Shown in pieces: positions 42,203 to 48,520 of a stretch of DNA of 64,000 nt. Both the position numbers and the translations under genes were made by a program. The notes under the pieces were generated by a model. That model was not told where the DNA came from. It saw only the letters and a program-made list of their open reading frames with translations, and did no database searches. The DNA is from Malacoraja senta (taxonomy: Eukaryota). Position 1 is the first letter of the stretch, and every line of letters begins with the position of its first letter. The stretch covers positions 10,852,001-10,916,000 of the forward strand of contig CM075995.1 of NCBI GenBank assembly GCA_038087875.1, in the 5' to 3' direction.

Positions 42203-42408
42203 GAAAAAAAATTTATTCCGGTGGCTGCTATGAAGCAGTAAGACAGCTGCACAGAGCTCTGCTCCCGACAAATCGTGTATAAACTTGGTTCCTACGCCAG
42301 GATCGATTAAAAAACTCTTACCGGGATTGCTGAACCTCGTGGGTATTGATGTCATCAGATGGTGCTGGTGGAATCGGGATTTAAAACGATTTTACCGGTA
42401 AAAATCGG

Positions 42409-43524
42409 ATGAAAAAGGGAAGTGGTCAGAGAGGACACAAGAAGACTACAATCAGTCTCCAGCTCCAGCTCCAAAAAGCTCTGGATGAGCTTGAAACCAC
42501 TCCTGAATCTACCTTTGAAAGTTTGGAAGAGGAGCTGGAATCTCAACATCCAACAGTCGAAATGGCTGCAAGAGCTGAAACAAAAGAGTTAAAAGAAAGG
42601 GAGAAAGAAATGAAAAGCTGGGAAGAATCGGTAAGAGTTAATATTACTAAAGACATTACTAAAGATCGTCAGAAGCAATTTGCTAAAATGAATTCTACAA
42701 TGCAGAACAATTTTTCTTCAATGGAGGATAATCTCTCTAAGAAAATTGACACTAGCTGTGGAGAATTAAAGGAACTTTACGTATCCCTGAACCAGCAGTT
42801 CAAAGATTTGGAGTCGAGGACTGCTAAGGAATTGGAAAGAATGCAGAGAGATTATAACAATAAACATGACTCCCTGCTGAAGCAATTAACAAAGACGGAA
42901 AAATTGATGGAAGAGATGGAGGGTGAAATGCAGCAGATGGGCCAGGAAATAACAGGTTTCAAAAAAGAACACGACGCGAATTGGGAGCTGACGAATAAAT
43001 TGAATGAGAAATGTCAAGATTTGGAAGCTAGGTCAAGGAGGCAGAATTTGAGAATAATAGGAGTTAAAGAGGGGGCAGAGCACGGCTCTGAAATGGGTGA
43101 TTTTATCACTAATTTACTTAAAGATGTTTTCAAACTGCCAGAAAAAACAAAGATAGACGTGGCTCATCGTGTTGGTCGCTTCCAAAGAGGAGCGAATGCT
43201 CCACCACGTCAAATTATCGTAAAGTTCTTAGACATTTCGACTTTGGAAAATTTATTAAAGAAGATATCTTATGGAGAAAATCTTACATTCGCTGATAATA
43301 TTGTTAGATTTTACAGAGACTACCCTCGGGAAATACTGGCAAAAAGACGCCAGTTTAAAAGTGCAAGTAGTATCTTACAAGGACATTCTGAAGTTCGTTA
43401 CGGTGTTATCTACCTTGCTAAAATGTTAATTACGTACAATGCTAAGCGACGTTCATTCACGGATCCCGATTCAGCTTGCAAATATGCCCAGGAGATTTTA
43501 AATAAAATTCAAGGAAAAGAATAA
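42409..43524 (+). CDS. L1 ORF1p (coiled coil, RRM, CTD), open
   Basis: Coiled-coil region followed by DLEARSRRQNLRIIGVKEG, AHRVG, PRQIIVKF, FYRDY. Confidence 0.9.
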   Translation: MKKGSGQRGHKKTTISLQLQLQKALDELETTPESTFESLEEELESQHPTVEMAARAETKELKEREKEMKSWEESVRVNITKDITKDRQKQFAKMNSTMQNNFSSMEDNLSKKIDTSCGELKELYVSLNQQFKDLESRTAKELERMQRDYNNKHDSLLKQLTKTEKLMEEMEGEMQQMGQEITGFKKEHDANWELTNKLNEKCQDLEARSRRQNLRIIGVKEGAEHGSEMGDFITNLLKDVFKLPEKTKIDVAHRVGRFQRGANAPPRQIIVKFLDISTLENLLKKISYGENLTFADNIVRFYRDYPREILAKRRQFKSASSILQGHSEVRYGVIYLAKMLITYNAKRRSFTDPDSACKYAQEILNKIQGKE

Positions 43525-44452
43525 CGTGACACTACGCCGGCTGAACTTGTTTTTTACTTTGTTTAGACGGTTTTCAGACATACTTATTTGGCCAGAACGT
43601 GTTTTTTAATAACAGAGTCCTAACTTTATCTTGAATTGAAAAACTGAGGCTCAACAGATGGAATGTTCAAGGTCGCAGGCTCTGCGCCAAGTTTTTCAGC
43701 CCTGAGTTTTATTGACTGTTCTTTTTTGAATTTATAACAGTCTTGTTGGTCTGCCTTTGTCTTAGTACTATATGATCTATTATTTAGATATACAGCATAT
43801 AACTAACTAACTAATTAATTATATATACGCAATAAACTCAATTAACCCTAAAGGTTTAATGTATTATACTAACATGACTAACTATATAGTAGGAAGGATG
43901 GGGGAGGTTAGACAGATATTCTAAATACTAATTACGAATCAACTAACATACAGGCTAATGAAAAGTCTGATTAATGACGATAATAATTCTATTTTATTTT
44001 ATTGTAAATCTTCTAGCTTTTCTTCTACCATCAGACTGCTGAAGGAGCTTGGAATCCACGGTCAAGCTCTGCGGAAGACCATAAGATCACTCTCAGAGGC
44101 GGCTGAAAGAAGCAGCCGGTGGATTTGGCTCAAGCGGAAAGACCCATGCTGGGCCCCAAGTATGTCGGGGTGAATCTTTGGGACGGTTTGACACGGGACA
44201 TGCGCTGAGGGTTGATCATCCTGCAGCGGGCTGCCCTTGTGGAGGGTGTATAGTGTTAAAAGGCCGAAACACCCAGTGATGCAAGGGTACACTACTGATG
44301 ATGTGTCCTATGCCCAACTGTCCTGAAGGTTACCCCCCCCCCACCCCCCCCCCGATGTTGAGCGTCTACCACTCTCAACAATCAACGAATGTCGTGAAAT
44401 GCTCCCCACCTATTGGCACAAGGGACTTCTTAACATCTTGTCCTGTGTATTT

Positions 44453-47400
44453 TTTTTTTTTTTAATATATTTTTTATTTTTTAGAAGTACGGTAGATTAC
44501 AGTAATGTACAACACGTATATATTAATACATTTTTTGTACCGCTTCACTTTTTTAAACTTTAAGAAAGAAAAAGAAAGAAGTAAGAAAAGTGAAGAAAGT
44601 GCACAAAGGTTGTGAAGTGCAAAAGAGTGTTGGGAAAAGAAAGCCCCTTAGAAAAGAAGTTAGAGAAGGAAGTAAAGTTAGAAAATAGACCCTAGAAAAA
44701 AAAAGAGAAAGAAAGAAGGAACAATCGCTCTATTATAATTCTTATACCATACTTCATAGAGAAGGAACTACCAACCAAGTCTGTTTTTATTTTACCTCCC
44801 ATTACCAGGTCCAGATACCTTTTATTTATTTATTTGTTTTTCTAAATTACTATTGCACCTCATGCTTGTAATAGGTCCAAAAACGTAGACCACGTCTTTT
44901 GAAATTGATCTACTTTGCCTACTAGGAGGAATCTCATCTCTTCCAGATGTAATGTTTCCAACATATTTGATGTCCACATTTTTATTGTTGGTGTGGGCGC
45001 ATTTTTCCAGAATTTAAGTATAAGCTTTTTTCCCATTATTAGCCCATAATTGAGTAAATTCTTCTGATACACGTTTAATTCAGGAATACCTTCCGATATT
45101 CCAAAAATAATCCATTCTGGTTTTGGTACCAGTTTTATTTTGATTAATTTTGAAAAAATATCAAATATTTCAAACCAGAATTTTTGGATTTTTGTACAAA
45201 AAACAAAAGAATGTGCTATGGTAGCTTCTTGACATATACATTTATCACAGATTGGTGAGACGTTAGGAAAGATTTTATTTAGTTTGGTTTTTGAATAATA
45301 TAATCTATGTAATGTTTTAAATTGGATAAGCGTATGTCGTACGTTGATCGAGCATTTATGCACCTGTAATAAATGATTATCCCAACTCTCTTTTGAAATT
45401 TTTATACCTAGATCTTGTTCCCAATCTCTTCTAATTCCATCTGTTGTGGGTATTTCTATATTTAAGATGATATTATATAAGTATGATATTAAATTAACTG
45501 ATTCCGCCTTTGTCTTCATTGCTTCATCTAGTAAGTCGGAAGGCATATTATAATAATCTTTTGTGTGTGTTTTCAAATAGTCACAGATTTGTAGATATTT
45601 AAAATATTGATTATTTTTCAAATTATATTTCAGTTGTAGTTGTTGGAATGATAGTAATTTTTCTAATTCATACAGATCTTCGAGCGTTTTAATTCCCATT
45701 CTTTCCCATTGTATAAATGCTTTATCTATGATTGAAGGTTTAAACGATGGGTTATTGACTATTGGTATTAAGAGAGATAGGTTTCTTAATTTTAGATTCT
45801 GTTTTATTTGCTTCCATGTTCTAATAGTGCTATATATAATTGGATTTTTATTATAATTTTTATTATTCAAATTTATTGGAGAGAGAATAATCGCTCCTAT
45901 ATTATTCGGGGAGCAATCCCCTTTTTCCATTATAATCCAGTCCACCTGCTGGGCAGAATTGTCCAGCAGGTGAATCATATTTTTAATATTTACTGCCCAG
46001 TTATAATACATAAAGTTGGGGAGCGCTAGACCCCCCAACTCTTTTCGTTTGTTAAGGTGTGTTCTTTGTATTCTGTGGGATTTGTAATCCCATATAAAAT
46101 TTGTAATGTCTGAGTCCAGTTTTTTGAAAAACTTTTTTGGGAGATATATAGGTATTGATTGAAATAGGTAAAGGATTTGTGGCAAGAAAATCATTTTTAT
46201 AGCATTTATCCTACCTATTAAGGACATCGGAAGTGTTTTCCAAAATTTAATCAGATTATTTAATTTCTTAAGTAGGGGATTATAATTAGCTTTAAACATA
46301 TCATGGTAATTTCTAGTAATCTCAATTCCTAAATATTTGAATTTTTCCATAGCTATTTTAAAAGGGAATTTCCTGAGATGTGTTGAGTCTTTTGGTTTAA
46401 TCGACATAATTTCACTTTTGTTCCAATTTATTCTATATCCTGAAAAGGATCCAAAGTCCTCAATTAAGTTTAATATATTTGGTATACTAATTTGTGGTTT
46501 TGTGATGTACAGTAGTACATCATCAGCATATAGGGATAGTTTGTTGTTTGAATATTTTGTGTTATAACCGTGAATATTCGAGTGTGTTCTTATTTTTTCA
46601 GCAAGGGGTTCAATTACCAAAGCAAATAACAGCGGTGATAGTGAACATCCTTGTCTGTTGCCCCTAGATAATTCGAATTTTGAAGATAATATATTATTAG
46701 TTAGTATTCTAGCCGTAGGTTTGTTATATAGTAGTTTTATCCATGCAATAAAGTTTTCTCCCAATTGGAATTTTTGCAATACTTTGATCATATAGTCCCA
46801 TTCTACTTGATCAAACGCTTTTTCTGCGTCCAGTGAGATGATTGCTAACTCTTGGTCATCAGATTTATGTGAATGCATTATGTTAAGCAAACGTCTCAAA
46901 TTATTAAATGAGTGTCTCTTAGGTATAAATCCTGTTTGATCCTCATGTATTAGTCTACTAACATACTTGCTTAATCTATTGGCTAATGTTTTTGCTATTA
47001 TTTTCTGATCCGTATTTAACAAAGCAATAGCTCTATATGATCCTGGTTCTTCTATATTTTTATCTTTTTTAAGTATTAATATGATCGTTGATTCCGCTAG
47101 TGTTTCAGGTAGGTTTTGCTCTTTATAAGCATATGTATACATTTTTTGTAATCGTGGAGTAACTATATCATAAAAAGATTTATAAAATTCATTACTGAAT
47201 CCGTCTGGTCCTGGTGTTTTTCCATTTTTTAGTGTTTTTATTGTGTCTTCTATCTCCTTAGAAGTAATTTGTGCTCCCAGTTCCTCTTGTTCCCTGCGTT
47301 CTAATTGTGGTAGATTACAATTATCTAAAAATTCTGAGATTTTATTATTGTCTATTGACGTTTTAGATGTGTATAGATTCTGGTAAAATTGAGCAAATCT

Positions 47401-48071
47401 TTTATTAATATCCTTGGGTAGTGTTAATACTTCCCCTCTATCTGATTTAATCTTTAATATTGCATTCTCTTTTTCCCGTTTTTTAAGTTGTCGTGCTAGA
47501 AGTTTGTGGGGTTTGTCCCCGAATTCGAAGTGTTCTTGTTTTGTGATTTGAAATAATGTTATAACTTTCTCTGACAGTAATTTATTTAACTGAAATTTCA
47601 GTAGTAGTATTTTATTATGTTTATCCATAGTTGGGTCTTTAGCATTATCTATATCTAACTGTTTTATTTGATCTTCTAAGTGTCTTTGTTCATTCTTATT
47701 CTTTTTATTTTGATAAGCTTGAAATGAAATAATGACTCCTCTTATAAATGCTTTGAAGGATTCCCATAATAACGTGGGGGATATCTCTGGTGTATCATTT
47801 AACTCAAAAAATAGATCCATCTGTTTTTTTAGATAGATACTCCCTTGAGGGTCTTTTAAAATTTGTGAGTTAAACCTCCAGAACGGTTTATTCATAGACA
47901 TTCCTTCTAGTTTTAGAACAAAAGTTAACGGAGAATGATCTGAGATCGCATTAATATGATATTTAGGATTCAGAGATTGCGAAATTAATTTTGTATCCAC
48001 AAGAAAATAGTCTATCCGTGAATATGTTTTATGCACCATTGAATAAAACGAGTAATCCCTTCCCGTCGGGT
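44453..48071 (-). mobile_element. Second L1-like LINE, 5'-truncated
   Basis: Poly-A tail; 15-bp TSD ttgtcctgtgtattt at 44438-44452 and 48072-48086. Confidence 0.93.
44860..48039 (-). CDS. L1 ORF2p, uninterrupted 1059 codons, lacking most of the APE domain
   Basis: YSRIDYFL, SDHSP, PGPDGF, LDAEKAFD, GNRQGCSLSP, YADD, ICDKC. Confidence 0.93.
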   Translation of the reverse strand: MVHKTYSRIDYFLVDTKLISQSLNPKYHINAISDHSPLTFVLKLEGMSMNKPFWRFNSQILKDPQGSIYLKKQMDLFFELNDTPEISPTLLWESFKAFIRGVIISFQAYQNKKNKNEQRHLEDQIKQLDIDNAKDPTMDKHNKILLLKFQLNKLLSEKVITLFQITKQEHFEFGDKPHKLLARQLKKREKENAILKIKSDRGEVLTLPKDINKRFAQFYQNLYTSKTSIDNNKISEFLDNCNLPQLERREQEELGAQITSKEIEDTIKTLKNGKTPGPDGFSNEFYKSFYDIVTPRLQKMYTYAYKEQNLPETLAESTIILILKKDKNIEEPGSYRAIALLNTDQKIIAKTLANRLSKYVSRLIHEDQTGFIPKRHSFNNLRRLLNIMHSHKSDDQELAIISLDAEKAFDQVEWDYMIKVLQKFQLGENFIAWIKLLYNKPTARILTNNILSSKFELSRGNRQGCSLSPLLFALVIEPLAEKIRTHSNIHGYNTKYSNNKLSLYADDVLLYITKPQISIPNILNLIEDFGSFSGYRINWNKSEIMSIKPKDSTHLRKFPFKIAMEKFKYLGIEITRNYHDMFKANYNPLLKKLNNLIKFWKTLPMSLIGRINAIKMIFLPQILYLFQSIPIYLPKKFFKKLDSDITNFIWDYKSHRIQRTHLNKRKELGGLALPNFMYYNWAVNIKNMIHLLDNSAQQVDWIIMEKGDCSPNNIGAIILSPINLNNKNYNKNPIIYSTIRTWKQIKQNLKLRNLSLLIPIVNNPSFKPSIIDKAFIQWERMGIKTLEDLYELEKLLSFQQLQLKYNLKNNQYFKYLQICDYLKTHTKDYYNMPSDLLDEAMKTKAESVNLISYLYNIILNIEIPTTDGIRRDWEQDLGIKISKESWDNHLLQVHKCSINVRHTLIQFKTLHRLYYSKTKLNKIFPNVSPICDKCICQEATIAHSFVFCTKIQKFWFEIFDIFSKLIKIKLVPKPEWIIFGISEGIPELNVYQKNLLNYGLIMGKKLILKFWKNAPTPTIKMWTSNMLETLHLEEMRFLLVGKVDQFQKTWSTFLDLLQA

Positions 48072-48520
48072 TTGTCCTGTGTATTTGATTCTCCTTCTAG
48101 CTTTTCTTATATTTTATTTTAAATTTTTTGGCTATTAATCGACCTGACACGATAATTTTGGTTATAAGTGGAGGAAACCAAGTTGGATGATATTTTACTA
48201 GGGGGACAAAGCCCAGTGCATAATTCCATCGATGGAGGTCAATTTAAAACAAATCTTAGCCACCATAGGTGGCTTTTTTGTAAGATATCGCTTTTTTGAT
48301 AACTTACATTCACTTTTTTTGTTTATTCACTATTATGCGTTGTATGATATAACAATCTTTATGAACACTTCATTTTATGTTTTTCTTTTTCCCTTAATTA
48401 TGTTTAATAGTGTCAGGAGATGTAAAACTAGTGCAGAAATTATGAAGGACAACCCTGGACTCGGGATTTCGAGGTACTTGGCTGCATCACATGAATTATA
48501 CATTCTGGTAATAATAGCCA

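Follow-up and report, generated by a model that had tools for sequence, protein, structure and literature searches.

The 3' region of a retrotransposon that encodes a restriction-like endonuclease (RLE) in Malacoraja senta carries a conserved RNA fold of six helices, which holds the core of a hammerhead ribozyme in a wiring for which we found no published counterpart. The fold lies in the window, by which we mean the whole 64,000-nucleotide stretch of DNA that was analysed. We consider it probable that this six-helix fold, with its hammerhead core and new wiring, cuts its RNA after position 44250, and that the resulting unit-length RNA becomes a circle that is copied repeatedly. Taken separately, self-cleavage of the RNA at the predicted cut is very likely, judging from sequence conservation, and a circular RNA template is a slightly favoured prediction.

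Predicted fold and wiring

Read 5' to 3', the RNA begins with helix IV, hairpin V, the strand of helix II that carries G10.1, helix P0, a kink-turn motif, helix III and the cut site. After the cut come helix I, the helix II partner, GAAA, the helix III partner, the kink-turn motif again and the P0 partner, and the 3' end is made up of the helix I partner, CUGAUGA and the partner of the outer helix IV (Table 1). The first-pass annotation, made from the window alone, had proposed a hammerhead core in a non-circular, pseudoknotted order within an RLE retrotransposon. This proposal was borne out by conservation and covariation (see below). All five hammerhead motifs that it listed are found where it placed them, 70 nt 3' of the stop codon TGA (44171-73), and helices I (44251-56 paired with 44289-94) and III (44244-49 with 44269-74) are both perfect 6-bp helices. 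The strand order is S-G-C (site, GAAA, CUGAUGA), with a GUA triplet. No Rfam hammerhead model matched the feature in the window or any of 10 relatives. Given the S-G-C order and the lack of an Rfam match, the RNA does not fall into types I, II or III, which have a three-way junction and the circular order C-G-S. An Rfam match to the C/D-box model sR52 (44239-44300, E 4.1) is at chance level and was perhaps drawn by the GA/UGA motif.

Table 1. Positions in the window of the parts of the predicted ribozyme fold and of the retrotransposon copy that carries it
Feature	Position	Strand	Remarks
Left target-site duplication, 15 bp	44010..44024	+	right copy 48094-48108
End of 5'-truncated RLE ORF	44025..44173	+	stop TGA 44171-73; C-terminus identical to 1,179-aa ORF
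Distal extension of outer helix, 5' strand	44181..44188	+	pairs with 44316-44323; seen in the family of the window element
Outer helix IV, 5' strand	44195..44202	+	pairs with 44302-44309, the strand directly after A9
Hairpin V	44203..44228	+	between helix IV and G10.1 with zero linker nt; loop palindrome TGATCA 44213-18
Helix II, leader strand	44229..44232	+	G10.1 = 44229; pairs with 44262-44265; C11.1 = 44265
Helix P0, 5' strand, and kink-turn GA	44234..44243	+	P0 44234-41 pairs with 44280-87; GA 44242-43
Helix III strand and GUA triplet	44244..44250	+	predicted cut 44250/44251, site by analogy
Helix I, 5' strand	44251..44256	+	pairs with 44289-44294
Helix II strand, G12 A13 A14, helix III strand	44262..44274	+	44262-65, 44266-68 and 44269-74
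Kink-turn bulge and GA, P0 3' strand	44275..44288	+	3-nt bulge AGT 44275-77, GA 44278-79, P0 44280-87
Helix I, 3' strand, and CUGAUGA core	44289..44301	+	helix I 44289-94; C3-A9 44295-301
Outer helix IV, 3' strand, and extension	44302..44323	+	helix IV 44302-09, extension 44316-23
Rest of element 3' region with poly-C tract	44324..44452	+	ends at later L1-type copy
Displaced true 3' end of element (GATTC..)	48087..48093	+	beyond the L1-type insertion

Several traits define the hammerhead class. The core nucleotides CUGANGA, GAAA and UH are present, and so is a helix II that starts with G10.1-C11.1 beside G12, this pair being G-C in 32/36 aligned sequences, with G10.1 supplied by the 5' leader. 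The class also has A9 and G10.1 linked directly or through 1-2 nt, and this trait is absent: the strand after A9 pairs elsewhere. A9 is not followed by G10.1, and the comparative data show a predicted four-way junction, formed by the core and helices II, IV and V, in place of that bond. In the sections of PMC3088659 available to us, the core insertions described are of 1-2 nt only, and a literature search gave no paper in which a hammerhead tolerates a junction between A9 and G10.1. In the window copy one helix II pair is U-G where most copies have C-G, and the outer helix contains a single mismatch that most copies do not share.

The cccttgt/gcaaggg pairing, at first regarded as a competing stem, turned out to be the conserved and covarying helix P0 of the fold itself. 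Dimer assembly, also raised at first, is unnecessary; one copy forms all six helices, while the palindromic loop keeps a dimer contact possible. As to extent, the core does lie within 44234-44312 as originally given, but the feature as a whole is larger and spans 44181-44323. Folded as a single sequence, 44178-44328 has a z-score of -3.16, with 0/200 shuffles as stable, and shows helices IV, V, P0 and III; the segment 44225-44325 that had been suggested for transcription folds, on its own, no better than shuffles (z -0.68).

A kink-turn consists of a 3-nt bulge followed by tandem G-A and A-G pairs, between two helices. The motif that joins P0 to helix III has this standard form in the window and in 21/36 sequences, compared with ∼2.7% after local shuffling. 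The other 15/36 aligned sequences lack a standard kink-turn, so it is not essential. At the centre of hairpin V, 25/35 sequences have a 6-nt palindrome (TGATCA in 14, TGGCCA in 4), against 14% by shuffling. We also observed that the palindrome in the hairpin loop (44213-44218 in the window) switches among TGATCA, TGGCCA, TGTACA and TCATGA from relative to relative. Such changing palindromes are as expected of a kissing loop for RNA dimerisation, which is a possible role.

Conservation and covariation among relatives

Relatives were collected by protein similarity alone, giving 78 metagenome loci, and the 46 of these with the C-terminus of the ORF and at least 150 nt 3' of it made up the core scan set. 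The S-G-C core with helices I and III was found on the sense strand of 37/46 protein-selected loci, on the antisense strand of 0/46 and in 2/920 dinucleotide resamples. Relatives with the core span down to 33% protein identity. Among the nine loci missed by the scan, five (L104, L116, L119, L125 and L165) have damaged cores and were matched by a covariance model, and another, L124, has its core copy at the start of the contig. Neither the scan nor the covariance model found a core in L138, L148 and L149. In the sub-lineage formed by L102, L104, L116 and L119, the helix II sequence is different and CUGANGA is altered in several copies, with the pairings kept; these may be decayed copies or a tolerated variant of the core.

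Alignment A2 holds 36 deduplicated sequences including the window, selected by hand, aligned with plain MAFFT and trimmed by hand at the ends. It consists of 34 of the 36 sequences scoring at least 12 plus two scoring 11 (L113, L177, L108, L151 and L171 were left out), and its counts are inflated by related sequences. C3, U4, G5, A6, G8, A9, G12, A13, A14, A15.1 and U16.1 are invariant in all 36, letters that were also anchors of the scan, and the cleavage triplet is NUH in 35/36. The six-helix model is 90% paired on A2, compared with 61% when shuffled and 34-42% when slid. Double-sided changes occur at 31/33 pairs of the model, with 7/7 for the outer helix IV. Helix I is 97.9% paired, helix III 95.1% and P0 89%, and RNAalifold, run unguided on the alignment, recovers helices IV, V, P0 and III. 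Comparison with homologues supports the first-pass annotation for helices I and III, which covary, and for the core, which is conserved in relatives.

For helix II, the same comparison gave a different partner. The original pairing of gtcct with aggcc, with a 3-nt insertion after A9, is 32.8% paired over the 36 sequences, which is below shuffles. In fixed columns of A2, helix II formed with the leader is 93.9% paired whereas the two registers after A9 reach 50% and 32.8%. In 32/36 sequences the strand preceding GAAA forms at least 4 bp, G-C first, with a leader located 14-25 nt (mostly 19-21) 5' of U16.1, and the best post-A9 run reaches 4 bp in only 2/36; the leader search tried more registers than the post-A9 search, and the fixed-column pairing is the fair comparison. 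Additionally, a model built without helices I and II matched 13/15 loci held out of the training set, some of which are near kin of training loci. In these 13 matches leader helix II was 88.9% and helix I 93.3% paired, while post-A9 pairing was 39.3%, the shuffle level. On these figures (32.8%, 50% and 39.3%) we ruled out a post-A9 helix II in the register first drawn and in the register with a 1-nt insert. Two further pairings that we had considered, one between the pre-GAAA strand and the strand 5' of helix I and one between GGGTA (44285-89) and TGCCC (44311-15), gave way to P0 and the leader helix.

The junction of helices IV and V was examined in 41 sequences, the 36 aligned plus five further loci. 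With zero linker, all 13/13 pairs form in 24/41 and at least 12 form in 36/41; the corresponding values with shuffled upstream sequence are 0.3% and 5.5%.

A quick tree built without named references places the fold across a broad clade. RNA reads came from another organism, 23 raw reads over four runs, which are too few and show no pile-up of ends; among the same reads is a related subfamily in which the second base pair of helix I has undergone a compensatory change. Viral contigs yielded one distant RT fragment. Prokaryote genomes yielded nine distant pieces that look like contamination, and the ribozyme model found no ribozyme in the six of the nine on which it was run. In one bacterial bin, probably through contamination, a very distant RLE ORF is followed at L184:1170-1240 by a sequence resembling the S-G-C core, with a post-A9 helix II of 2 bp; the model did not match this sequence. 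A tRNA-like sequence (GGTTCGA / TAGTGG, recognised by eye) stands between the ORF and the ribozyme in L108:2400-2500, L145:1180-1288 and L111:3290-3338, and in L108 it stands where hairpin V would otherwise be. This sequence could serve as an internal pol III promoter.

The host retrotransposon and its copy in the window

The repeat is young, with 994 first-look candidates in its own genome; 40 of these were scored and all are 99-100% identical. Full units are ∼3,953 bp long and have a single 1,179-aa ORF containing an RT (Pfam RVT_1 only), a CCHC knuckle and the PD..E motif of restriction-like endonucleases, and the nearest solved proteins are R2 and L1. The element thus shows the traits of RLE non-LTR elements, namely a single ORF with RT, CCHC and PD..E, 5' truncation and target-site duplication. 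The traits of Penelope-like elements, a GIY-YIG endonuclease and a telomerase-like RT, were not found; the RT matches RVT_1 and is nearest to R2 and L1, and the endonuclease motif is of the RLE kind. The best matches, at the protein level, are in fishes, lamprey, lancelets and bivalves. We take the element to be HERO-like, a label given by traits rather than by a tree with named HERO sequences. The HERO clade, in the portions of PMC4640811 and PMC9004415 that were accessible, is RLE-encoding, largely not target-specific and present in fish, lancelet and sea urchin, and the traits of the element fit the clade as described there.

The copy in the window is 5'-truncated (44025-44452), and a later L1-type copy, with a duplication of its own at 44438-52 and 48072-86, has inserted close to the 3' end. 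We observed that 42385-48108 consists of three nested insertions, each later one with a 15-bp duplication: an L1-type ORF1 (42385-43524, +), the RLE fragment behind ORF1, and a 5'-truncated L1-type ORF2 copy (44453-48071, -) inside the 3' end of the RLE fragment. The interval from the ribozyme to the fixed 3' end holds a poly-C tract of variable length, at 44334-44353 in the window. In an RNA of unit length this tract would be in the leader of the ORF and might have a role in cap-independent translation.

Structure of the genomic copies

The ends of the DNA copies do not agree with the original suggestion that the ribozyme processes the 3' end of the element. Of 34 distinct 3' tails, 32 match the element for 5-10 nt starting at GATTC, 204 nt past the predicted cut; one of the remaining two reads through into the next unit and the other is the interrupted copy in the window. 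Since the 3' end is fixed 204 nt beyond the cut, the cut does not define it. In a separate observation, the flanks after GATTC often match the continuation of the element for 1-5 more bases (L001-L100; T in 23/31 tails of other insertions), which suggests priming by microhomology on a template that runs on past GATTC.

At the other end, all 30/30 sampled copies that hold the unit start are preceded by the element's own 3' end, and 26/30 run past the cut site. Twenty-four of these 26 are identical over 40 nt, the two differences are in the linker, and 26/26 are unchanged at the cut. No 5' end was found at the cut in these 30 copies (0/30), nor within 5 nt of it in two overlapping sets of sampled copies (0/30 and 0/30). 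The cut lies ∼340 nt before the first ATG of the next unit. Arrays of more than two units are present at L190, L194, L196 and L206.

Units were compared in 24 tandem loci, chosen as tandems. Divergence was 1.14 per kb for units within one locus and 2.18 between loci, and 13/73 locus-private substitutions were in both units. Neighbouring units agreed in 10/19 shared polymorphic cases, several of the 19 being probably recurrent transitions or poly-C misalignments. Among relatives with enough sequence, 16/32 have a head-to-tail arrangement, in contigs that may be assembly collapses.

Comparison with known hammerheads and ribozyme-bearing elements

The statement in the first pass that no known permutation gives this strand order requires correction. 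S-G-C is the order of type SGC (HRIMA-1 and variants; Eckert et al. 2023), which comes from metatranscriptomes and cleaves in vitro (PMC10085705); its wiring differs, however. With the exception of one GCS candidate, none of the RNAs of PMC10085705 is in the genome of a known organism, and the six possible orders given there were derived on the assumption that CUGANGA and the helix II strand are uninterrupted. The element and type SGC have in common the S-G-C core order, pseudoknotted helices I-III, a short linker between helices I and II, and a helix II followed by one purine and then a helix with a strand just before helix I. Helix II, the purine linker and P0 of the element correspond to helix II and the I-II interaction helix of type SGC, moved from the 3' to the 5' end. 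In type SGC helix II comes directly after CUGAUGA(U), with, in the part of PMC10085705 that we could draw on, single-nucleotide inserts between A9 and G10.1, whereas in the element it comes from the 5' leader. The post-A9 strand of the element closes an extra helix with a hairpin, which type SGC lacks, and the kink-turn motif and palindromic loop belong to the element, the description of type SGC (PMC10085705) making no mention of them. The published pattern of SGC core plus helix II fits 0/41 examples, which would explain why the RefSeq search in PMC10085705 missed such RNAs. Judged by its alignment, the element's RNA is predicted to work like a type-SGC hammerhead and is not a member of the type as defined.

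Type-CSG and type-GCS hammerheads (PMC10085705) have the cyclic order of the three blocks in common with the element. Their cycle is opened between blocks. In the element the opening lies within block C, at the A9/G10.1 step, and this block was assumed there to be uninterruptible. The predicted wiring lies outside the published set of hammerhead orders, the S-G-C order itself being already known.

As described in partial versions of the sources (PMC4209133, PMC11167929, bioRxiv 10.64898/2026.07.22.740005), Penelope-like elements and retrozymes resemble the element in having one hammerhead per unit, partial-tandem copies, an internal RT start and a proposed circular RNA template. They differ in having a GIY-YIG endonuclease or no protein, where the element has an R2-type RT, a CCHC knuckle and a restriction-like endonuclease, and their type I/III ribozymes are classical and often minimal and dimeric, in contrast to the full monomeric fold predicted here. 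R2, on the partial accounts at hand, is likewise an RLE non-LTR element; a self-cleaving RNA, HDV-like and at the 5' end, frees its RNA from a longer transcript, as is predicted for the element here. R2 is site-specific and the cut sets its 5' end, whereas the element has dispersed insertions, no copy that starts at the cut, and another class of ribozyme.

Full-text searches yielded no account of a hammerhead carried by HERO or any other RLE element, of a type-SGC RNA encoded in a genome, of this junction or of a natural hammerhead kink-turn, nor of a ribozyme, tandem habit or circle for the HERO clade. The accessible parts of PMC7650587, PMC13580325 and the 2026 retrozyme preprint do not mention such a hammerhead or junction. 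Prior notice is possible in subscription papers, Repbase Reports, patents, preprint supplements or the 2025 Nature RLE screen, which includes Hero.

A proposed circular template and its alternatives

In the mechanism that we favour, a head-to-tail transcript would be cut by the predicted ribozyme into unit-length RNAs of ∼3,953 nt. The kink-turn would bend helix III back, allowing P0 to reach helix I. After two cuts, the ends of the monomer would carry the halves of the fold and could re-pair through helices IV, II, P0 and III, and the ribozyme or a host ligase would then join them into a circle. Target-primed reverse transcription would start internally at GATTC and stop at random, leaving arrays of 0.1 to more than 2 units. 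The same circle model has been proposed for Penelope elements, according to the portion of PMC4209133 consulted.

The priming site is 204 nt from the 5' end of the cut monomer, and long copies therefore need a circle, a jump or an uncut precursor. The seamless head-to-tail units, the shared private mutations and the fact that no 5' end falls at the cut point to a circular RNA template as likely. We prefer the circle since arrays cannot be restored by linear copying and a jump would be expected to leave traces. An uncut template would account equally well for the missing 5' ends, and gene conversion or a homogeneous tandem parent could have produced the shared private changes. The main caution is by analogy with the Penelope element PAc, for which the available text of PMC11167929 gives uncut RNA as the dominant template and no reads ending at the ribozyme site.

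We regard a linear template as unlikely. In this scheme the ribozyme would cut, and RT, having initiated at an internal site, would run to the 5' end created by the cut and switch to the 3' end of that RNA or of a partner RNA, kept close by the ribozyme helices or by the palindromic loop. R2-type enzymes are known for template jumping, four helices join the two RNA ends, and jumps would explain both the seamless arrays and the shared private mutations without ligation. However, extra or missing bases or truncations are usual where a template jump has taken place, yet all the spanning copies are unchanged at the cut and none starts there.

Also improbable, in our estimate, is that insertions are copied from uncut read-through RNA of tandem parents, with the ribozyme acting in another step, such as making an uncapped mRNA 5' end for translation or limiting read-through, as for a Penelope element. 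That no sampled copy starts at the cut agrees with this, as do the mainly uncut templates of PAc in the passages seen of PMC11167929 and the distance of the cut from the next ATG, the place where R2, in the partial sources, has its HDV-like ribozyme. On the other hand, arrays could only become shorter if a linear parent were copied, yet some still have more than two units, and locus-private substitutions were found in both units 13 times.

It is very improbable that the fold is a conserved protein-binding or packaging structure derived from a hammerhead that has lost cleavage, or that needs a dimer partner or a kink-turn-binding protein in order to cut. In favour of this, a junction that may alter activity stands where the A9-G10.1 bond would be, and the palindromic loop (25/35) and kink-turn motif (21/36) suggest RNA-RNA and RNA-protein contacts. 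Against it, all catalytic positions persist in elements as divergent as 33% protein identity while the helix letters vary freely, and the triplet stays NUH in 35/36.

Significance

The published count of six wirings assumes that CUGANGA is inseparable from helix II, and the predicted fold of the element separates them. With the two apart, descriptor and Rfam searches miss the fold, which occurs at about a thousand places in its own genome (the first-look candidates). The natural kink-turn and the free helices at A9 make a ready scaffold for switches. Gene insertion with R2-type proteins is under development, and a related enzyme able to copy a circular template would be of practical interest.

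With this family, the idea put forward ten years ago that retroelements with ribozymes transpose by way of circles could be tested cleanly, as the family is young and has many intact ORFs, a defined predicted cut site and a fixed priming site. The broadest reading, on which our judgement is evenly balanced, is that of a seventh hammerhead wiring, opened between A9 and G10.1, with a four-way junction, kink-turn and kissing loop, that would be standard in an ancient animal RLE lineage of autonomous elements moving by self-made circular RNA and rolling reverse transcription. If true, this would place a non-circularly permuted ribozyme in animal genomes, with a biological job.
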